UHGV virus genome: UHGV-1468037
Reading direction: 5' to 3' (one strand)
Length of the DNA: 21,312 nucleotides
From: a virus
The stretch's first letter is position 1. The number at the start of each line of letters is the position of its first letter. The notes under the pieces are model-generated. The model saw only the letters and a program-made list of their open reading frames with translations, made no database searches and was not told the DNA's origin. The position numbers and the translations under genes are program-made. Of the stretch, positions 3,576 through 20,153 are shown piece by piece.

Positions 3576-6551
3576 TTACATTGACATTAATATAAACATG
3601 GCTAATTCGTCATAACGAATTCCGTAGCGTCCTCCTGCTTTTTTTACAAGAATCATATCTCCTGTTTTATATTGAGAATAAATTTTCTCACCTGTATCAG
3701 GATCTGTGCTCTCTTCAGTTATCACCTCTTCATCCCATACGTCAGGCCATTCATCGTAACACCAAAAAGCATATTGCTCAGGGTTTAAACCATGCTTTCT
3801 AAGAATATCCCCTACGGTTTGAGCGCCAACGCCAAAATGATACCTGGACGACTCAATTCCTTTGTGATTAATTGAGTCATTAAATTTAAATTTATAGATG
3901 ACTGACTTTATTTCAATAGCGGCATTACGCTCTGCATTAAGAATATCATATCTTGTTTTAAGAGTTTCATCTGACGTATTGATTGACCCGGTTCCTGCAT
4001 AGATAACAGAGCATCTGTTTGATGGCTGTCCAATAGCTTTAACATTATCATCAACAGGAGCTATTTTATTAGCATCTGCCAACCACCAGTCTGTTCCATC
4101 AGCGTGACCGATTCTTACTCTTATCCCACTTCTAATATTTAAACTTCCAGTATTGCTCTGTAAATTACAATCTCCTGACGTTGGTCCAAGCAGTACAGTT
4201 TTACCAACACCACATACTACTCTGGCATTTCCTTTTTGTGATACGAGTCTTGACTCACCTCCTGACTGCTCAGGAAGAGATTTATGGTCTATAAATGCAT
4301 CGCGGGGGTTAAATACACCGTCTCCAGAATTATATCTTCCTCCTGTATAGTTGTTAAATACAGGACCCCAGTCAACGCCATTGCCTTCAGAGCACCCGAC
4401 CATTCTAAGCACTCGAGTATTCCCTGCTGCATATGGTAATGAGCTTGTTGATTGCCGGGAAGCTATCATACGTGCTCCATAACCAATAGCATTACCACCA
4501 TTTATAGTTACATATGCTTGCTGGCTTTCGAAATATGTACTGTAAAAGTTCATATTTCCACAGTCATGCAGATGAATAAGAACATCATCCCATCCCTGAA
4601 TGGTTCCCGCATGTACCTGTACACCGCGAACTGGTTCCCCTGAAACCTCCATACACTCTGATGGCCGGCTGAATGGCTGAGACAGGTATTGCGATGTGGC
4701 AAGCAGATGTGTGTGGTGATACAGGCTGGTAATGTAGCAATCGAAAAATTGCGTTCCCGCCATACCAAAGTTATCTATGTCATTTCGCCGTATAGTAGAA
4801 CCTACTGTTGCCTCAGAAGCGTTAGACACTCCAGTAAATACTAACTTATCACCGGATACGGATAATCCTGAATAAGTGAAATTCCTGCCTCCAGATCTTA
4901 AAACCCCGGACGTTTCGAAGGTGTGGCTTGCTGACCATGGGATTTCGATAGTGCTGGACGTTACCGCTGTAATTCGGAATACATCATGGGCGCGGATCGA
5001 AATACCCTTGAATCCCTGGAATCTACAGTGATAATAGTTTTCATCCTCGCCCTGAGCGGCCAGCGTGCCAGATACAGGAATGTTCGTTTTTAAAAGTGCC
5101 GTCTTGCGCCAGTATCCAACCACCTGCAAATTGCGGTATTCATTGCCAAAAGACGCACGTGACCAAATACCTACATCCCACTCATCGCCAAGACCGGTAT
5201 TTGCAATGTCTTTATAACCATCCAGCCCATTGAAATATGGAACAACACGAAAGTTCTCAAGGCGAACACATCCTGTCTCAGGCATCAATATTGCGGCAGA
5301 GAATGGTTTAAGCGTGGCTCTTGTAGTCCCATTAGCATCACCGTTAGTAAAATCCAATAAATCATATGATGACGCAGGTGCCGTTGTTGTATACGGGTCT
5401 TCGGAAGATGGATTAGAAACCACACCACCACTAACATCCATATTAGAAACACAATCTACAGTATATTTTTTATTTCCTACCCCGTACATCAGGAATGTGG
5501 TCCCTGTGGTAATATCAGGAGCAAATGTTGCAGTATATCCAGAGACCCATTTGCCCACACCAAGACCAATTATCCCACCACCAGAAACAGGTGTTAACGT
5601 ATCCGTTATTACATACGCATTATCAGTACCATAAATAACCTTTCCTGTGTTAATGGCAGCTTGCCACGCGGCCCAGTCTATTGACTGAGATAATGAGTCA
5701 ACAAAAGGATATAAGGATTTTGCTTCAGAAATTGAAGAAAACCTCTCAGATAATGGATGATATTTCCCATCCCCAATTGCTCCGAATTGTTTTACATTTA
5801 AGAAAAGAGCATTGTTTTCATGCTGAGTTATAGTTACAGCCCAGGCAAATGGCTGCCTTACACCAATTAATGCATCACCTTTTCCTTCTCCTGCGCTAGA
5901 TAATTGCAGAAGAACATCTGCGGCACTGCCAGAAGGCACAGGTACACCTATAGGTTTACCATTGACGATACCAATGACAGTTTCTTCCAGTAAATGAACT
6001 GGAGGAAGTGGTTCAATAAAATTATCTGGAACCCGTAATGTCCTGTTAATATTCACATTAACAATATTATCAACATAATTCTTTGTAGCTGCATCTTGAG
6101 GCTTGGAAGGATCGCGCAAATTGCGGATGTAATTATTCAAAGCATCGTAATAGTTTGCCACAAATGATGGTTTGCGCAGCGCCAGGCTAAACCAACTGCG
6201 GACTTGCTGTATCAGCATCGTCAGCTTATCTAACGCGTCTTCATGCACCTCAGCGAAAAACTTTCCCTGATTTCGCAGATCAGTTTCCTGCGTAACCGGT
6301 AGCTCTCGTGATATAGAAATCTGATAACCGTTAGCTAACGCCTTCGACAGAATTACATTACCGCCATTATATCCACCAGCCCCAGTGACAGTGTAATCAG
6401 TATCAAGAGCCAGCACAGCGATATTTTCGTCAAGGTCAACCACCTGTACTGCCAGATCAGATTCCTTGAAAACCCTAAAGGTATACGGAAATGATGTCGT
6501 AACGCCGTTACCTGTGTATTCGTTGTGGTCAACTTCGGTTGAGACCGTCAT
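3576..6551 (-). CDS. Tail fiber/tailspike with conserved N-terminal virion-attachment domain, central probable glycanase region, and C-terminal intramolecular chaperone (peptidase S74-like) domain
   Basis: 991 aa. N-terminus (TGNGVTTSFPYTFRVFKESDLAVQV...EVHEDALDKLT) resembles the conserved N-terminal domain of podovirus tail fibers/tailspikes. C-terminus (IYKFKFND...HFGVGAQTVGDIL...GGRYGIRYDEL) resembles the self-cleaving chaperone domain. GGAG RBS 8 nt upstream of the start. Confidence 0.75.
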   Translation of the reverse strand: MTVSTEVDHNEYTGNGVTTSFPYTFRVFKESDLAVQVVDLDENIAVLALDTDYTVTGAGGYNGGNVILSKALANGYQISISRELPVTQETDLRNQGKFFAEVHEDALDKLTMLIQQVRSWFSLALRKPSFVANYYDALNNYIRNLRDPSKPQDAATKNYVDNIVNVNINRTLRVPDNFIEPLPPVHLLEETVIGIVNGKPIGVPVPSGSAADVLLQLSSAGEGKGDALIGVRQPFAWAVTITQHENNALFLNVKQFGAIGDGKYHPLSERFSSISEAKSLYPFVDSLSQSIDWAAWQAAINTGKVIYGTDNAYVITDTLTPVSGGGIIGLGVGKWVSGYTATFAPDITTGTTFLMYGVGNKKYTVDCVSNMDVSGGVVSNPSSEDPYTTTAPASSYDLLDFTNGDANGTTRATLKPFSAAILMPETGCVRLENFRVVPYFNGLDGYKDIANTGLGDEWDVGIWSRASFGNEYRNLQVVGYWRKTALLKTNIPVSGTLAAQGEDENYYHCRFQGFKGISIRAHDVFRITAVTSSTIEIPWSASHTFETSGVLRSGGRNFTYSGLSVSGDKLVFTGVSNASEATVGSTIRRNDIDNFGMAGTQFFDCYITSLYHHTHLLATSQYLSQPFSRPSECMEVSGEPVRGVQVHAGTIQGWDDVLIHLHDCGNMNFYSTYFESQQAYVTINGGNAIGYGARMIASRQSTSSLPYAAGNTRVLRMVGCSEGNGVDWGPVFNNYTGGRYNSGDGVFNPRDAFIDHKSLPEQSGGESRLVSQKGNARVVCGVGKTVLLGPTSGDCNLQSNTGSLNIRSGIRVRIGHADGTDWWLADANKIAPVDDNVKAIGQPSNRCSVIYAGTGSINTSDETLKTRYDILNAERNAAIEIKSVIYKFKFNDSINHKGIESSRYHFGVGAQTVGDILRKHGLNPEQYAFWCYDEWPDVWDEEVITEESTDPDTGEKIYSQYKTGDMILVKKAGGRYGIRYDELAMFILMSM

Positions 6552-6654
6552 GTTAAATCTCCAGATAGTCGCAGCACCCGTTGCGCCGCATATCCGGTTA
6601 TTCTATTACCTGAAAAACCACATATGGATAGAAATACTGTGAATATGAATAGAT

Positions 6655-6671
6655 ATTACCTTTCGGGTAAT
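6655..6671. promoter_or_regulatory. Dyad motif copy 1 (ATTACC TTTCG GGTAAT)
   Basis: Perfect inverted half-sites TTACC/GGTAA with 5-bp spacer; one of four copies in the island; 76 bp upstream of the 85 aa gene. Confidence 0.5.
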
Positions 6672-6707
6672 TTGCAAAACGTGCTGGATAGCAAACAAAT
6701 TATTTGC

Positions 6708-6727
6708 TACTGTATAAATATACAGTT
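6708..6727. promoter_or_regulatory. LexA box (SOS operator)
   Basis: TACTGTATAAATATACAGTT: perfect CTGT-N8-ACAG with an AT-only spacer; about 20 bp upstream of the 85 aa gene start codon (6747). Confidence 0.75.
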
Positions 6728-6746
6728 ATTGCATGGAGAAGATAAG

Positions 6747-7004
6747 ATGCAGCAGTATCACTATCCACTGGAAGACGGATTTACCGAAAGGATTCACACG
6801 CCGGGAGGCGTCAGGTCACTGGTGGAGGGATCGCACTTGATGAAATTACTCCGGGATCTCGATAAGGATGGATTTAATGTCGATGGCCCACTTGCCGAAC
6901 TGACTGCACTGATTAACTACGTCACCAGCTCACAGATGTCTATGCGGGATCTGCAAACACATCTCGACTATTGTGCCGAACAATTACGAAAACAAACCCG
7001 GTAA
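6747..7004 (+). CDS. Small antirepressor-like protein; standalone paralog of the C-terminal domain of the downstream Ant-like protein
   Basis: 85 aa from ATG 6747 (GGAGA RBS). The upstream part of ORF 6624..7004 is rejected because it contains the LexA box and dyad site. Aligns by eye with the Ant-like C-terminus (LM.LL..L..DG..V.G..AELT ... RD.QTH..Y). Confidence 0.65.
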   Translation: MQQYHYPLEDGFTERIHTPGGVRSLVEGSHLMKLLRDLDKDGFNVDGPLAELTALINYVTSSQMSMRDLQTHLDYCAEQLRKQTR

Positions 7005-7010
7005 ATTTAA

Positions 7011-7028
7011 AGGCCGCAAGAGCGGCCT
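7011..7028. terminator. Bidirectional terminator between convergent genes
   Basis: Stem AGGCCGC / GCGGCCT with loop AAGA, T-rich on the plus side and A-rich before. Overlaps the stop codon of the minus-strand 242 aa gene. Confidence 0.55.
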
Positions 7029-7755
7029 ATCGTTTCGCTTTGTGCTCATCCCAGCACGTTTTGCACCATGCCATTAAGCCGTCCGCATTTTGATTATTAG
7101 GGTAAAAGCTGGTTCGTTTTCTGCGGACATTACAAATTGGGCACCACTTCATATGGCGTGTATTCTTTGGGCCATCGAGACACCTTGCACACCATTTAGT
7201 CAATCCATCTGGATTTTTTGACGATTTCCTGAATTTTTCATATGGAAGGTTTATTCTGCATCGCAAGCACTGCTTGCTACCACTTGAAACTCTGTTAGCT
7301 GATTCTTCTTTTGGCAGCGATACAGAAGGTATTCTTGCTGGCTCTGATATTGCCTGAGGTGCTTTTTTAGATGACTGAGACGATATGTCATCACCAGGGA
7401 ATCTTCCATGATATGCCGGACGCGTTGACACTCCAGGTGGAATCTCAGCTGTAAACGGCTTTGGCTGAATCAGTTGCCTCTCTTTTGCTAACTCCTGCTG
7501 TTTATAATATGTCTGGATTACCGCACTATCATAAGCAGGAGGTGCGGAAATATTAGGCGCATTACCTCCAGTTTTTTGAAACTGAGTAGAGGTGTGTTCT
7601 ATCACCTGTGTACGATTAATCGTTATCTCCCCATCTTCGGTCTTTATCGTTTTGTTATGATTAACGACCGTACGATCAGAGATCTTAGTCTTGTTCTGGT
7701 TGATAACGTAAATAATCACCGCAACCACACCAACAACTATCCAGAAAACTTCCAT
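7027..7755 (-). CDS. Membrane-anchored protein with two C-terminal zinc-ribbon (CxxC-N19/20-WCxxC) motifs; function unknown
   Basis: 242 aa. N-terminal TM helix (VFWIVVGVVAVIIYVI) followed by basic residues. Low-complexity linker. Two repeats: CLRC...WCARC and CPIC...WCKTC, in a basic context. GAGGA RBS. Divergent from the ant-like gene. Confidence 0.7.
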   Translation of the reverse strand: MEVFWIVVGVVAVIIYVINQNKTKISDRTVVNHNKTIKTEDGEITINRTQVIEHTSTQFQKTGGNAPNISAPPAYDSAVIQTYYKQQELAKERQLIQPKPFTAEIPPGVSTRPAYHGRFPGDDISSQSSKKAPQAISEPARIPSVSLPKEESANRVSSGSKQCLRCRINLPYEKFRKSSKNPDGLTKWCARCLDGPKNTRHMKWCPICNVRRKRTSFYPNNQNADGLMAWCKTCWDEHKAKR

Positions 7756-7774
7756 TGCTTTTCCTCACAATAAC

Positions 7775-7791
7775 ATTACCTTAAAGGTAAT
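7775..7791. promoter_or_regulatory. Dyad motif copy 2 (ATTACC TTAAA GGTAAT)
   Basis: Perfect 17-bp palindrome in the 5' UTR of the 242 aa gene, about 20 nt from its start codon, and at the far end of the ant-like leader. Confidence 0.5.
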
Positions 7792-7867
7792 ATCTTGCTT
7801 TCAGGTGATCAAGCGTTAAACGCAATCAACCAAATACGGTTGATTTTAATGTTTCTTCGCGCTTATC

Positions 7868-7884
7868 ATTACCTTTACGGTAAA
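7868..7884. promoter_or_regulatory. Dyad motif copy 3 (ATTACC TTTAC GGTAAA)
   Basis: Same TTACC-N5-GGTAA architecture, in the divergent intergenic region between the 242 aa gene and the ant-like gene. Confidence 0.45.
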
Positions 7885-7918
7885 TTTACATTGCACTCCT
7901 CTTGTGCCATAGTAATCG

Positions 7919-8049
7919 GGCACTGGCAAAATCCAGTGCCGGGATTGGCGTCCCGGATTACTACAGAGGCACATATGCCGCATAAGCGGTTTTTTTATGT
8001 GTAAAGCGCACCTATTCTATGGTGGGCTGTGTGGGGGCACCGAAAGGTG
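7919..8049 (+). promoter_or_regulatory. Structured leader upstream of ant-like gene (multiple hairpins including a terminator-like hairpin plus T7 run)
   Basis: Hairpins GGCACTGG/CCAGTGCC (7919-7940) and CCGGGA/TCCCGG (7939-7956) overlap and are mutually exclusive. CCGC-ATAA-GCGG followed by TTTTTTT (7978-7996). GCACC-GAAA-GGTGC (8037-8049). Confidence 0.4.
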
Positions 8050-8149
8050 CGCCGGGTCCTTTGTAGCCGGTTACGCCAACCCTGCACAGTTCACCACCAA
8101 CCGATTGGCGTCGGTAGTGGTGATTAACCTAACTACAAAGGTGATCACT

Positions 8150-8836
8150 ATGACTGCTAACGTAACCCCATCTGTTTTTCATTTTGAATCAGAAGCAACC
8201 ATTCGAGCCATTGTTATTGATGGAAATCCTTGGTTTGTTGCCAAAGACGTTATTAAAGCTCTTCAACTGACAAACCCCACTATGTCAATAAAATCTCTTG
8301 ATGATGATGAAAGGGCTAAATTTAACTTAGGCCGTCAAGGCGAAACCAATATTATCAACGAGTCAGGCCTCTACACACTGATCCTCCGCTGCCGCGACGC
8401 AGTGACACCAGGCACTATCCCCTACCGCTTTCGCAAATGGGTTACAGGTGAGGTTCTTCCTCAGATCCGCCGCACCGGAAGCTACATTAAAAACTCGCTC
8501 CCGCAGGAAGAGCGCATAAAGATGGTTGCCGACCAGGTAGCCAACGCCACGGCGTCAGCAGTAATGCAGGCGATGAAGATAGAGAACAAAACCTACAGTG
8601 CCCCACTGAAGCCAGGCTACCGCAGTCTGATTCATTCGCCGTCGGGTGTTCTCGGCCTGACGGAGAACTCATTGCTGATGAATCTGCTGAATCAGTTGCA
8701 GGACGACGGGCATGATGTATCGGGCGCGGCGGCGGAACTGACCACCATGTTCTGCTACATCGTCGGTGTGAGCAAATGCCTGCGTGATATCCAGACGCAC
8801 GCGGAGTACATCAACGACAAGGCAGGGTTCTTCTGA
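8150..8836 (+). CDS. Antirepressor-like protein with N-terminal BRO-N domain and C-terminal antirepressor-type domain
   Basis: 228 aa from ATG 8150 (AAGG 8 nt upstream). N-terminus matches the BRO-N pattern (IDGNPWFVAKDV...INESGLYTLIL...FRKWVTGEVLPQIRRTGSY). The longer ORF from 7997 would include the hairpin leader and lacks an RBS. Confidence 0.75.
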   Translation: MTANVTPSVFHFESEATIRAIVIDGNPWFVAKDVIKALQLTNPTMSIKSLDDDERAKFNLGRQGETNIINESGLYTLILRCRDAVTPGTIPYRFRKWVTGEVLPQIRRTGSYIKNSLPQEERIKMVADQVANATASAVMQAMKIENKTYSAPLKPGYRSLIHSPSGVLGLTENSLLMNLLNQLQDDGHDVSGAAAELTTMFCYIVGVSKCLRDIQTHAEYINDKAGFF

Positions 8837-8845
8837 CAGAACGGC

Positions 8846-8868
8846 GGCACAGGGATGTGCCTTTAAAT
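8846..8868 (+). terminator. Weak terminator-like hairpin after ant-like gene
   Basis: GGCACA-GGGA-TGTGCC followed by TTTAAATAATT. The T-run is short, so termination is probably partial. Confidence 0.3.
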
Positions 8869-8908
8869 AATTCTGTACAGATTGCAGACTGTGGGTGAAT
8901 AGCGTACT

Positions 8909-8925
8909 ATTACCTTAAAGGTAAA
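8909..8925. promoter_or_regulatory. Dyad motif copy 4 (ATTACC TTAAA GGTAAA)
   Basis: Core identical to copy 2. Abuts the Shine-Dalgarno AAGGAGG of the 55 aa gene. Confidence 0.5.
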
Positions 8926-8936
8926 GGAGGCGCGAT

Positions 8937-9104
8937 ATGACAGCGTTGAAAAATCGTACTCAGCACAATGAACAAGCCAAGCAATGCTGGGATGTCATTG
9001 GAAAAGTTATGCTTGGCCGCGCAAGCAAAGAGCGCGACAAGGATATGGTTTACCAGACAGGAACATCTTTCAGCGACTTCAAGGCGGCATTTCGCTCCAA
9101 ATAG
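8937..9104 (+). CDS. Small basic protein (55 aa), unknown function
   Basis: Not in the ORF track (<60 aa). ATG 8937 is preceded by a consensus SD AAGGAGG with 6-nt spacing. Translated by hand: MTALKNRTQHNEQAKQCWDVIGKVMLGRASKERDKDMVYQTGTSFSDFKAAFRSK. TAG stop at 9102-9104. Confidence 0.55.
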   Translation: MTALKNRTQHNEQAKQCWDVIGKVMLGRASKERDKDMVYQTGTSFSDFKAAFRSK

Positions 9105-9124
9105 AAGCACATTAGGAGTTTGTC

Positions 9125-9565
9125 TTGAAGTTTAACATTAGAATATCTAATAGTTTTCTAAATGGGGAAAGCAACACCCCTTTCGCTGTAGACGGACCTT
9201 TCCTTACTGACGATGAAATAAAAATCATACAAAGGTTTTTAGAAGATGTTGCCAATGGAAGGGCGCTTGTTGGAAAAAACAAGCCATCGTGGGTTGATGA
9301 TAACCATGATAAAATTCCCGGCTCAGACAATTATGAGCAAGAGAATTATTGGCATTATCATTGTGGGCCAACATGGTATCCAAACACATTTAAGAATTAT
9401 ACCATTAACTTAAATTTCAACCCTGGCGGAATGCATTCTAATGAATGCATTCATTATGCAAAAAATGATAATGAAATTGTCGTTGTTGGATTTTCAAGAG
9501 AACACATACCTTTCCTTTCATCAGATGGAAACGACAATCCGCTTTTTTATGATGAAGAAGAATAG
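9125..9565 (+). CDS. Hypothetical protein (146 aa) with acidic C-terminus, unknown function
   Basis: TTG start with AGGAG 6 nt upstream; 20 nt after the stop of the 55 aa gene, so probably an operon. Strongly AT-rich codon usage. No signal peptide. Followed by a strong terminator. Confidence 0.6.
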   Translation: MKFNIRISNSFLNGESNTPFAVDGPFLTDDEIKIIQRFLEDVANGRALVGKNKPSWVDDNHDKIPGSDNYEQENYWHYHCGPTWYPNTFKNYTINLNFNPGGMHSNECIHYAKNDNEIVVVGFSREHIPFLSSDGNDNPLFYDEEE

Positions 9566-9588
9566 CCCGCGGCGCGGGCTTTTTTGTG
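9564..9588 (+). terminator. Rho-independent terminator after the 146 aa gene
   Basis: Stem AGCCCGC / GCGGGCT with a 3-nt loop, followed by TTTTT. Confidence 0.75.
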
Positions 9589-17688: not shown

Positions 17689-20153
17689 CAGAATCCCCCA
17701 ACAGTAAGACGAGGAATAACGGCAAGAACAGACAGCGGCAACGGGTCAAGCTGACGGATTCTTACACGTCCGTTTTTGCCCCAGTTACTGTCCAGTTTCA
17801 CTTCTACTTTTCCGGTAGCGTCATCAACAGGATCATCGTAGAACTCGAATTCACGCTGTGGATATTCGTACCATTTACCGCCGGGCGTAGTCGCCCAGAT
17901 GCCACGACTGGCATTCACAACCAGAGTAACGGACGGGATCACCTGTTTTTTGTCCAGCAGCGTTTCCTGTCCGTTAATGTTGATATCCAGTGTTTCGAAT
18001 TCAGCAGTTATTGGCAGGCCGATGTGCACTACAGCCCCAGGTGATTCCAGCGTGACGGCACCTCCGGAAACCACTTTCTGTGGTTCCACGTTCGCATCAG
18101 AGAGAATGTTTACGGTCTGGCCTTCAAGATGAGACAGGCCTCCAAATGTCCGGCGCGCCATCTGCCAGTTCGTGGTGGCCACATTCCTGAGGGATGGCGG
18201 GACGTTCCTGTTAGCACGAACCACTACAGCGGTATTGCTGGTTACAGAAATAATGTCGCAACGTAATTCTTTTGACACTTCAGTATCAGGATCAGTTCCG
18301 GTATAAGGGAACTGTAGTTGCGCGCCGACATCACTACTGGTGAAGTACGCACCACCAGAAACACTGATTGTATATTCCGCACGGTAATCCCATTCACCAG
18401 AACCACCAGTGATGGTCATCGTTCTGTCAGACGTATTTCTTCCATCATAGCTAAGGCCAGAATCAACAAAGAAAGCATCTTCATCGCTGGTAAATAAACG
18501 GCTGGACAGTCGCTCTATGTATCTCACTGTTTGCCCGTTAACGGTTCGGTTAACGACGAAATACACCGCATCTTCATTGCCTTCGCTGATACTGCATGTG
18601 CTTTCATATTTTCCGGTACTGGATTGTGGTGCCCATGCAAAAACCTGCTGATCACGCAAATAGGTCATCACCAGTAATTTACCGTCATCACGAATGCAGA
18701 AGGCGCTGGAGTAAGGGACAATCGAGAAGCACCAGTCAACAATGCTGTGCTTCTGAAAAAGATGATTGGCAAGGATGGTCAGGTCGTTCCCCTGATAGCC
18801 GTCAACATCGAATGAGTAGGCCAGATCACGGACAACACTGCCTTTCTCCTGGACGAACAGAGCAATATTCGCCACGGCAATTGGTGGGACATTGCTCGAG
18901 CCATTTGATCCCTGAGAGCTGAATGCAAATGATGATGGGGTAAGCACTTTGTTCTGGTCGCCAGTGATGACGTACTCACCTCCGGAAGTCAGCGCCACCA
19001 GCGAACCAACATCAATCAGGTGACGGATCTCATTAACCTGACGCCCGGCATAGGTGTAGATAATTCTGTCGTCATCCTGCGTAGGATTGCTTTTGCCAAA
19101 ATCCTTATAATCCCCGGTACGGCTGGCCCAGATAGTCTGAGGGAACGCAGTCGATGCGGCGAAGTAAAGGCGTTGTTGATAATAAACAACAGTGCCAGGA
19201 TAACCGTTAATACTGTTCCAGGCATATTTAGCCCATTTATAGCTGGCATTATCCTCGCCAACTACCTGCGAAGGGATATAGGAAATCACCTCGGCAGTTG
19301 CAGTAGTTCCATTTGCAGCAGAGATACGGGCAATGCCAAAACCACTGTGCAGATACTCCCACTCAATGCCGGTATCATCATCACCGGATCCGCCCCAGCC
19401 ATCCCATGATGTGCCTTCTGTATGCGAAGGGCGCAAAGTGCCTGTTTTGCCTGCTGTAACGGCGCGATAGTAGTTACTGTCTGCACGGCGAATATCGCCA
19501 ATCGACGTACTCTTACTGGTTTCCCATACCGGCACAGAATCCACTGCAGGCTGTTCCAGATAGAACAATTTGCCTACCTGCTCCGCGCCAAAAATTGAGG
19601 CGCTTGCCGTTAACGTAATTGTCCCGGTGCTGGCGCTGGCATAAACCGTCACTGACTCGTCAATATTGATATCTTCAAATGGCCCGTTCTTCGTTACCAC
19701 ATCAACCAGTTGCCAGTTGTCATGCGCATAGCGGCGCAACTCTTTCGGCGGGTATGCCGGATGAACCAGCGTAAGCACGTCTGCGCTTTGCGTGAATTTA
19801 ATTCGGAACAGATCGGCTTCAGTATATGGCGTGGCAATTTCATAAATAACATTGCTGCTGTTCAGCACCAACGCACCATCTTTGATAACGCGCATGTACT
19901 GGTGTCCGAACTCCAGAGCATAAGTCTGAACCGTCGAGAACTGGAACGGGATCAGGCGGCATTTCCGATTTGGGTATTTGGCGGCACCGACAAAACGCGT
20001 ACCAGGTCGATTCTCAACGCCGCCATACTGCCGCACGATAAAGTTATCGCACTTGCGCAATGCCACCTGGTACTTCGCCATGTCGATACGACCGTACAAC
20101 GACGGTCCAATCTCACCACCGGCAAAGCTGGGCTGGATCCAACTGATAGCCAT
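17688..20153 (-). CDS. Tail tubular protein B-like (nozzle; T7 gp12-position analog)
   Basis: 821 aa. Directly follows the tail-tube A-like gene with an ATGA overlap. Size close to T7 gp12. Confidence 0.6.
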   Translation of the reverse strand: MAISWIQPSFAGGEIGPSLYGRIDMAKYQVALRKCDNFIVRQYGGVENRPGTRFVGAAKYPNRKCRLIPFQFSTVQTYALEFGHQYMRVIKDGALVLNSSNVIYEIATPYTEADLFRIKFTQSADVLTLVHPAYPPKELRRYAHDNWQLVDVVTKNGPFEDINIDESVTVYASASTGTITLTASASIFGAEQVGKLFYLEQPAVDSVPVWETSKSTSIGDIRRADSNYYRAVTAGKTGTLRPSHTEGTSWDGWGGSGDDDTGIEWEYLHSGFGIARISAANGTTATAEVISYIPSQVVGEDNASYKWAKYAWNSINGYPGTVVYYQQRLYFAASTAFPQTIWASRTGDYKDFGKSNPTQDDDRIIYTYAGRQVNEIRHLIDVGSLVALTSGGEYVITGDQNKVLTPSSFAFSSQGSNGSSNVPPIAVANIALFVQEKGSVVRDLAYSFDVDGYQGNDLTILANHLFQKHSIVDWCFSIVPYSSAFCIRDDGKLLVMTYLRDQQVFAWAPQSSTGKYESTCSISEGNEDAVYFVVNRTVNGQTVRYIERLSSRLFTSDEDAFFVDSGLSYDGRNTSDRTMTITGGSGEWDYRAEYTISVSGGAYFTSSDVGAQLQFPYTGTDPDTEVSKELRCDIISVTSNTAVVVRANRNVPPSLRNVATTNWQMARRTFGGLSHLEGQTVNILSDANVEPQKVVSGGAVTLESPGAVVHIGLPITAEFETLDININGQETLLDKKQVIPSVTLVVNASRGIWATTPGGKWYEYPQREFEFYDDPVDDATGKVEVKLDSNWGKNGRVRIRQLDPLPLSVLAVIPRLTVGGF

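Follow-up and report, generated by a model that had tools for sequence, protein, structure and literature searches.

The locus

We analyzed a stretch of 21,312 nucleotides from the virus genome UHGV-1468037, which is referred to here as the window. It belongs to an epsilon15/phiV10-like (Uetakevirus) prophage of Escherichia coli and matches the Escherichia phages TL-2011b, phiV10, and other epsilon15-like podoviruses. Part of the region was matched in 999 of 5426 complete E. coli genomes, and the closest complete prophage is that of E. coli ML35, in which the island of accessory genes considered here is 97.7% identical. Our subject is a palindromic element of this island, the dyad TTACC-N5-GGTAA. 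Judging from sequence and context, its four copies in the window are very probably operators of Rep, the main lysogeny repressor of these phages and a homolog of SPC32H Rep and epsilon15 gp38.

Exact copies of the dyad are found at 6656-6670, 7776-7790, 7869-7883, and 8910-8924 (copies 1 to 4, respectively), the only matches in the window, and no match was obtained anywhere in it with other spacers of 0 to 11 between the TTACC and GGTAA half-sites. In 100 shuffles of the window that preserved its dinucleotides, the mean was 0.03 copies and none contained four. An earlier note, made from the letters alone, had held the four copies to be nonrandom, which these figures bear out, and the 17-bp sites read exactly as given there: ATTACCTTTCGGGTAAT (6655-6671), ATTACCTTAAAGGTAAT (7775-7791), ATTACCTTTACGGTAAA (7868-7884), and ATTACCTTAAAGGTAAA (8909-8925). 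All four are intergenic. Copy 1 lies where the tailspike gene (3576-6551, minus strand) and the antirepressor gene ant (6747-7004, plus strand) diverge, 40 bp ahead of the window's single LexA box, i.e., upstream of a LexA-controlled gene, as the same note had it. Copy 2 precedes the minus-strand gene of a 242-aa protein (7027-7755), whose start codon is 20 bp downstream, and is 93 bp from copy 3. Copy 4 heads a cargo operon of two small genes at a mosaic junction and abuts the AGGAGG ribosome-binding site of the first of them (55 aa), so that the reported proximity of two copies to the start regions of the 242-aa and 55-aa genes also holds.

The LexA box (TACTGTATAAATATACAGTT, 6708-6727, plus strand) contains the sole CTGT-N8-ACAG match in the window (6710-6725) and is kept in all seven aligned genomes. 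It lies over a candidate ant promoter, TGGATA (6685-6690) and TACTGT (6708-6713) with a 17-bp spacer, which was assigned by reading the sequence. The product of ant is an 85-aa antirepressor of phrog_450, orthologous to SPC32H Ant; in a phmmer search against PDB, its residues 2-84 match 5D50 chain E, "Anti-repressor protein" (E value, 1.4e-46). The 242-aa gene, taken from the list of open reading frames (ORFs), matches phrog_6762 over its full length and has no assigned function. Its protein has a hydrophobic N terminus and a Cys-rich C-terminal region, and residues 142-241 gave weak matches to endonuclease VII and Lar-like zinc ribbons, with Stc1 below the threshold in Pfam. In TL-2011b, the equivalent stretch is annotated merely as a misc_feature.

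On the plus strand, an isrK-type small RNA (sRNA) with its terminator (7920-7996; Rfam RF01394, 76.8 bits versus a gathering score of 50) is followed by a C4 antisense RNA (8015-8101; RF01695, 79.5 bits versus a gathering score of 45) and by the gene of a 228-aa BRO-N/Ant antirepressor (8150-8836; Pfam Bro-N, E value of 5e-20). The tandem of isrK and C4 upstream of a BRO-N antirepressor gene is a module of the P1 immI/Gifsy-1 isrK-anrP type in an epsilon15-like podovirus prophage. The C-terminal domain of the 228-aa protein is Ant-like; residues 145-226 match phrog_450 and share 41% identity with the 85-aa Ant (E value, 3e-16). The cargo operon (8937-9565, plus strand) comprises the ORFs of the 55-aa protein (8937-9104; phrog_8607) and of a 146-aa protein (9125-9565; phrog_5954), both in families without a function. 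It is followed by a bidirectional terminator (9564-9580) and then by virion genes on the minus strand. The 55-aa, 146-aa, and 242-aa proteins and a 283-aa protein had no above-threshold match in Pfam and none in NCBIfam or PADLOC.

The dyad in related phages and in host DNA

The dyad is conserved in related prophages. We found 8 to 11 exact copies in each of six complete relatives (phiV10, TL-2011b, Tyrion, epsilon15, SPC32H, and the E. coli ML35 prophage), including 11 in epsilon15, 10 in SPC32H, and 11 in the ML35 prophage. From mononucleotide composition, about 0.04 copies would be expected in the 40.6 kb of the ML35 prophage, where 10 of the 11 copies are intergenic even though 91.5% of the stretch is coding. 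When all 5-mer dyads with spacers of 2 to 8 were counted, TTACC-N5-GGTAA ranked first, with 11 copies versus 3 for the next independent dyad. Across 59 sites in the six genomes, the half-sites are invariant and the spacers variable, with A or T as the central spacer base in 58 of them. The dyad does not reach a similar density in the host, where 72 kb of the ML35 chromosome contained one match. This lone host match is inside truD (L010 2385-2399) and has a C at the center of its spacer, atypical for the phage sites; it is probably a chance match.

The sites recur at syntenic positions: between rep and a cro-like gene, in two pairs with an exact spacing of 62 bp (one immediately downstream of rep, one beyond the replication genes), before the terminase genes, before the portal/head operon, in the gap between ant and the tailspike gene, and in the island where it is present. 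The earlier description of the dyad as confined to the island is thus right for the window, but it does not extend to whole related prophages, which carry dyads at about seven further regulatory regions outside it. Each of the six complete genomes has both 62-bp pairs (e.g., L003 5172/5234 and 8227/8289, with equivalents in L004 and L006 to L009). Dyads are present on both flanks of rep in ML35, TL-2011b, phiV10, Tyrion, epsilon15, and SPC32H, the positions of OR and OL in lambda. A scan of a genome collection with a Rep alignment added six full-length Rep loci, from Superficieibacter, Erwinia, Klebsiella, Citrobacter (two), and Scandinavium. In all six, dyads are placed at about -70, -86, or -118 relative to the start of rep and again at about +640 and +700. 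When covariation of operator sequence with Rep specificity was looked for, distant homologs aligning with Rep in the N-terminal domain alone (Paraburkholderia, Hydrogenovibrio, and Thiomicrospira) showed no repeated dyad of any kind.

Register of the dyad and predicted promoters

In the relatives, the PL-like promoter downstream of rep is TTGACA-17-AATCAT, with an operator that starts on the last T of the -10 hexamer and a second operator 62 bp upstream. A -10/-35 pair in that exact register was found at 24 of 122 site-orientations, versus 0.7% of control T positions. Since the dyad overlaps the -10 hexamer at many sites, a protein bound there would block initiation.

Within the window, the promoter scan placed two promoter-like sequences around copy 3. 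The first, P(a) (TTGATT-18-TATCAT, 7840-7869, plus strand), points at isrK and its -10 hexamer ends on the first T of the dyad, so that copy 3 covers its +1. At the same register, phiV10 has TTGCAA-17-TATATT and Tyrion has TTGTAA-17-TATTAT, in upstream DNA unrelated to that of the window. The second, P(b) (TTTACA-17-CATAGT with a TG, 7885-7913, plus strand), has its -35 element abutting copy 3 and a start predicted near 7920, where the Rfam match to isrK begins. The phiV10 region upstream of isrK is without the -35-like TTTACA of the window, and its operator lies inside a 39-bp perfect palindrome, GAGTGCTTATATTTACC-GCAAA-GGTAAATATAAGCACTC (L004 20480-20518; L002 3475-3513). At copy 4, a weak promoter-like sequence could be read, TTGCAG-17-TACTAT (8882-8910, plus strand), whose -10 hexamer ends on the first T of the dyad, in the register of the PL-like promoter; the ML35 variant at this place, TTGGCG-18-TAATAT, passes the register test.

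Identity of the binding protein

An indication of what binds the dyads comes from the database record of epsilon15. RefSeq NC_004775.2 carries seven features labeled "protein_bind: repressor; lysogeny" with the sequence ATTACC-N5-GGTAAT. One of them (19895-19911), in the gap separating gp19 (ant) from the tailspike gene, is the counterpart of copy 1; both are 76 bp away from the start codon of ant. A remark in this record likens the epsilon15 repressor to PDB 5D50_A, the repressor of SPC32H, which is matched also by the Rep of ML35 type (E value, 4e-42). The two Rep types, ML35 and epsilon15, are 43% identical and have an unchanged half-site. Their N-terminal domain is more conserved than the rest (53% versus 37%) and includes an invariant NLVNRW stretch, which fits the constancy of the half-site. 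Judged by its sequence, context, and synteny, the dyad is a member of the Rep operator family of epsilon15 and SPC32H. The suggestion in the earlier note of operators for a repressor, possibly the prophage immunity repressor, is favored by the dyads flanking rep, the epsilon15 annotation, and the -10 register; the repressor, which the note called unidentified, is very probably the SPC32H Rep homolog.

The epsilon15 genome was reportedly published by Kropinski et al. in 2007, and the Rep-Ant switch of SPC32H (PDB 5D50 and 5D4Z) is said to have been described by Kim and Ryu in 2013 and by Kim et al. in 2016. A literature text search for the motif together with epsilon15 gave no match, the primary SPC32H and epsilon15 papers being outside its reach. 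According to one citing paper, SPC32H Rep binds palindromic DNA as a tetramer in which each DNA-binding pair comes from different dimers, one Rep tetramer suffices for repression, and the Ant tetramer breaks the Rep tetramer (PMC9638917). Another attributes to Rep a p53-like tetramerization domain associated with DNA looping (PMC9986798), and a third states that SPC32H Ant is produced after LexA cleavage (PMC7380047).

Several points weigh against Rep as the binder, which we infer from these correspondences. The rep gene lies outside the window. That the operator used in the SPC32H and epsilon15 experiments is this dyad is presumed from the GenBank annotation. Neither the promoter scan nor the register test found a convincing sigma-70 promoter at copies 1 and 2 in either direction. 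Copy 3 is centered near -44 of P(b), from where some repressors activate; repression seems likely at this promoter, with activation as the alternative.

Another core regulator of the phage could also be the main binder, although we consider this unlikely. The best candidate would be the 76-aa Cro-like protein encoded divergently from rep (L006 34001-34231), a match of phrog_35, "transcriptional repressor", and the second would be the 112-aa regulator encoded upstream of the terminase genes (L006 28307-28645). Both are 76% identical between the E. coli (ML35) type and epsilon15, compared with 43% for Rep, while the half-site is unchanged, which is a further point against Rep. In lambdoid switches, moreover, operators are common to Cro and CI. 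However, such sharing would supplement the binding of Rep and not substitute for it. The epsilon15 record credits the sites to the repressor, the DNA-binding N-terminal domain of Rep is itself well conserved, and the silence of a prophage needs a binder expressed in lysogeny at both early and late promoters. By analogy, the dyads are probably shared between Rep and the Cro-like protein, the only other candidate to be taken seriously, whether in place of Rep or as a co-binder. Divergence has been much faster in the repressor than in its partners, among which Ant matches SPC32H Ant with an E value of 1e-46.

Dyads at module boundaries

We also looked at the island in a sample of eighty IMG/VR loci (L023 to L102) with a near-identical ant gene. 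Of 70 isrK cores in these loci, 68 are preceded by an exact dyad at a distance of 59 bp, and the dyad of the remaining two carries a single mismatch. Copy 1, the site before ant, could be scored in 79 loci and is exact in 55, has one mismatch in 23, and is more diverged in 1; among the aligned genomes, it is kept in seven, from three host genera, while its flanks diverge. The 93 bp that separate copies 2 and 3 recur unchanged in ML35, TL-2011b, and the IMG/VR loci that carry the 242-aa gene. A further dyad follows the antirepressor gene in 57 loci. The DNA before it is mostly of one class, and after it there are 14 distinct 25-mers, which were grouped into about eight unrelated classes. The homology with TL-2011b ends near 8928, at copy 4, and the slot after the dyad is occupied in that phage by a YafO toxin cassette unrelated to the 55-aa and 146-aa proteins of the window. 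At the other end of the module, the isrK homology of phiV10, Tyrion, and HEMP4 begins near 7861. Because TL-2011b homology stops at the dyad and about eight classes follow it, the operators coincide with homology breakpoints.

These junctions could mean that the dyads are primarily recombination or module-boundary sequences at which cassettes are exchanged between phages, and not operators. We regard this as quite improbable, since no dedicated recombinase is associated with the dyads, and the same sites occupy classical OR/OL positions and overlap -10 hexamers. Recombination between mosaic phages would, besides, be expected to leave junctions at short conserved promoter-operator sequences as a by-product. 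The Stx phage PA28 has a homologous isrK/C4/ant module with an ordinary promoter and no dyad upstream of isrK; the dyad thus belongs to the Uetakevirus immunity system and not to the isrK module.

The earlier note had also raised the possibility that the palindromes are RNA hairpins in 5' leaders that hide the Shine-Dalgarno sequences (SD) of the 242-aa and 55-aa genes. The dyads can fold (-3.7 to -9.2 kcal/mol; z-scores of -1.3 to -4.2), and two of them adjoin ribosome-binding sites. Nevertheless, this explanation now seems very improbable. The folds are weak, the SD is outside the predicted stem, and positions 8904-8936 fold no better than shuffles. The invariant half-sites and variable spacers of the 59 sites also argue against it. 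There are 31 one-mismatch sites that break the pairing versus 5 compensated double variants, and the 3 of these that were checked are inside annotated structural or packaging genes, not at regulatory positions. In addition, the sites are found in both orientations, between divergent genes, and upstream of -35 elements, and if the predicted promoters are right, transcription would start inside the dyad, leaving the hairpin out of the RNA. A binder encoded in the island itself (the 55-aa, BRO-N, or 242-aa protein), an option also raised at first and suggested by the restriction of the window's dyads to the island, is hardly credible, considering that epsilon15 and SPC32H have their 11 and 10 exact dyads without isrK, C4, the BRO-N gene, the 242-aa gene, or the 55-aa gene, and that the cargo behind copy 4 varies between phages while the dyad is constant.

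A model for the island and its relation to known switches

With Rep as the binder, ATTACC-N5-GGTAAT before essentially every transcription unit of epsilon15-like phages would allow one repressor to silence each unit directly. In the lysogen, Rep would sit on all the dyads. At copy 3, it would cover the start of P(a) and abut the -35 element of the isrK promoter, gating the operon of isrK, C4 RNA, and the BRO-N/Ant antirepressor. On copy 4, over the start site of the weak promoter, it would shut off the variable cargo operon, and on copy 2, in the leader or start region of the 242-aa gene, it could act on that gene. Copy 1 would place the repressor in the control region between the LexA-controlled ant and the tailspike gene. 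Upon DNA damage, LexA would be cleaved and leave the box at 6710-6725, ant would be released, and Ant would dismantle the Rep tetramer, so that all operators would be vacated and the island promoters could fire. The derepressed BRO-N/Ant protein, whose C-terminal domain is 41% identical to Ant, could then reinforce induction because of this domain, under a control by isrK and C4 like that described for Gifsy-1 (PMC4825925). Of the two Ant domains of the window, one would be controlled by LexA and the second by the Rep operator together with the isrK/C4 RNAs.

The statistics of the dyad, its placement across genomes and genera, the promoter register, the protein homologies, and the database annotation are observations; whether each site represses or activates, the looping of copies 2 and 3, and the feedback loop are steps that we infer from the arrangement of the sites. 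Spacings of 62 bp (about six helical turns) and 93 bp (about nine turns) suggest bridging by a tetrameric repressor. More speculative, and doubtful as a whole, is a joint scenario in which Rep operators gate a second, RNA-controlled antirepressor that works as a positive-feedback latch or as a trans-acting inducer of co-resident prophages, and cap a hypervariable cargo slot expressed solely on infection or induction (e.g., counter-defense or toxin-antitoxin cassettes), with phased 93-bp and 62-bp pairs looped by one Rep tetramer that would shut two divergent promoters.

The system closest to that of the window is epsilon15, whose repressor sites have the same ATTACC-N5-GGTAAT consensus, dispersed intergenic copies, and the copy between ant and the tailspike gene. 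However, epsilon15 is without the isrK/C4/BRO-N island and so has no counterpart of copies 2 to 4, and its repressor is 43% identical to the E. coli type. As to the Rep-Ant switch of SPC32H, the window has the Ant ortholog behind its LexA box, related prophages have the Rep ortholog, and SPC32H has its 10 dyads in the same syntenic places. SPC32H has the small LexA-controlled Ant alone, whereas the window adds a BRO-N-fused protein with an Ant domain under RNA control and extra operators. Copy 1 is thus already annotated in epsilon15, and copies 2 to 4 would be new instances of this known operator, located in an island absent from epsilon15 and SPC32H. The novelty, which is modest, would be in the wiring, as the reach of Rep would extend to a second antirepressor and a variable cargo slot.

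In P1 and P7, the C1 repressor acts at numerous scattered operators, with Op51 as the control site of the immI operon (c4 antisense RNA, icd, and ant). The likeness to the window is in the scattered operators of one repressor, the C4-family RNA that immediately precedes an antirepressor gene, and the putative main-repressor operator at the promoter of this operon. The C1 operator of P1 is an asymmetric 17-mer, though, and C1 is unrelated to Rep. The operator of the window is symmetric and unrelated in sequence, which places it outside the P1 C1 regulon. Also unlike P1, an isrK sRNA precedes C4 here, as in Gifsy-1. In the excerpts of the Gifsy-1 study, the isrK-orf45-anrP operon has isrK with a leaky terminator, then the processed STnc1160, and then the antirepressor gene, all transcribed from the isrK promoter, with STnc1160 in the position of the Rfam C4 match of the window; those excerpts describe no repressor operator at the isrK promoter (PMC4825925), whereas the isrK of Uetakevirus has an exact Rep-type dyad 59 bp upstream. 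The palindromes over divergent promoters on the flanks of the repressor gene resemble the OR/OL system of lambda CI and Cro, and paired sites suggest cooperative binding here as well. In lambda, however, the operators are confined to the immunity region and late genes are reached by an antitermination cascade, while here operators are also found before the packaging, head, antirepressor, and cargo units.

A palindrome that seemed specific to the island thus becomes annotatable as the probable Rep operator of the epsilon15/phiV10-type prophages, a common group in E. coli. Accessory genes would be placed under the lysogeny repressor, namely, the second antirepressor controlled by isrK and C4, the 242-aa gene, and a swappable cargo operon. 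No new kind of regulatory element is revealed, but ATTACC-N5-GGTAAT, often fused to a -10 hexamer, offers a simple rule by which the promoters and module boundaries of this phage group can be predicted.

Other operator-like sequences

Two further sequences resemble the dyad or a part of it. About 57 bp upstream of the integrase gene, a dyad with one mismatch (TTACCnnnnnGGTAT) is kept in all the genomes examined (L006 40642, L003 135, L004 26870, L007 28568, and L008 26882) and may be a weak operator for int expression. At 6600-6619 of the window, the block ATTCTATTACCTGAAAAACC is kept in seven genomes and contains a lone TTACC half-site adjoining a -10-like hexamer, TAGAAT, on the minus strand; there is no good -35 element, and the block may be the promoter of the tailspike gene.

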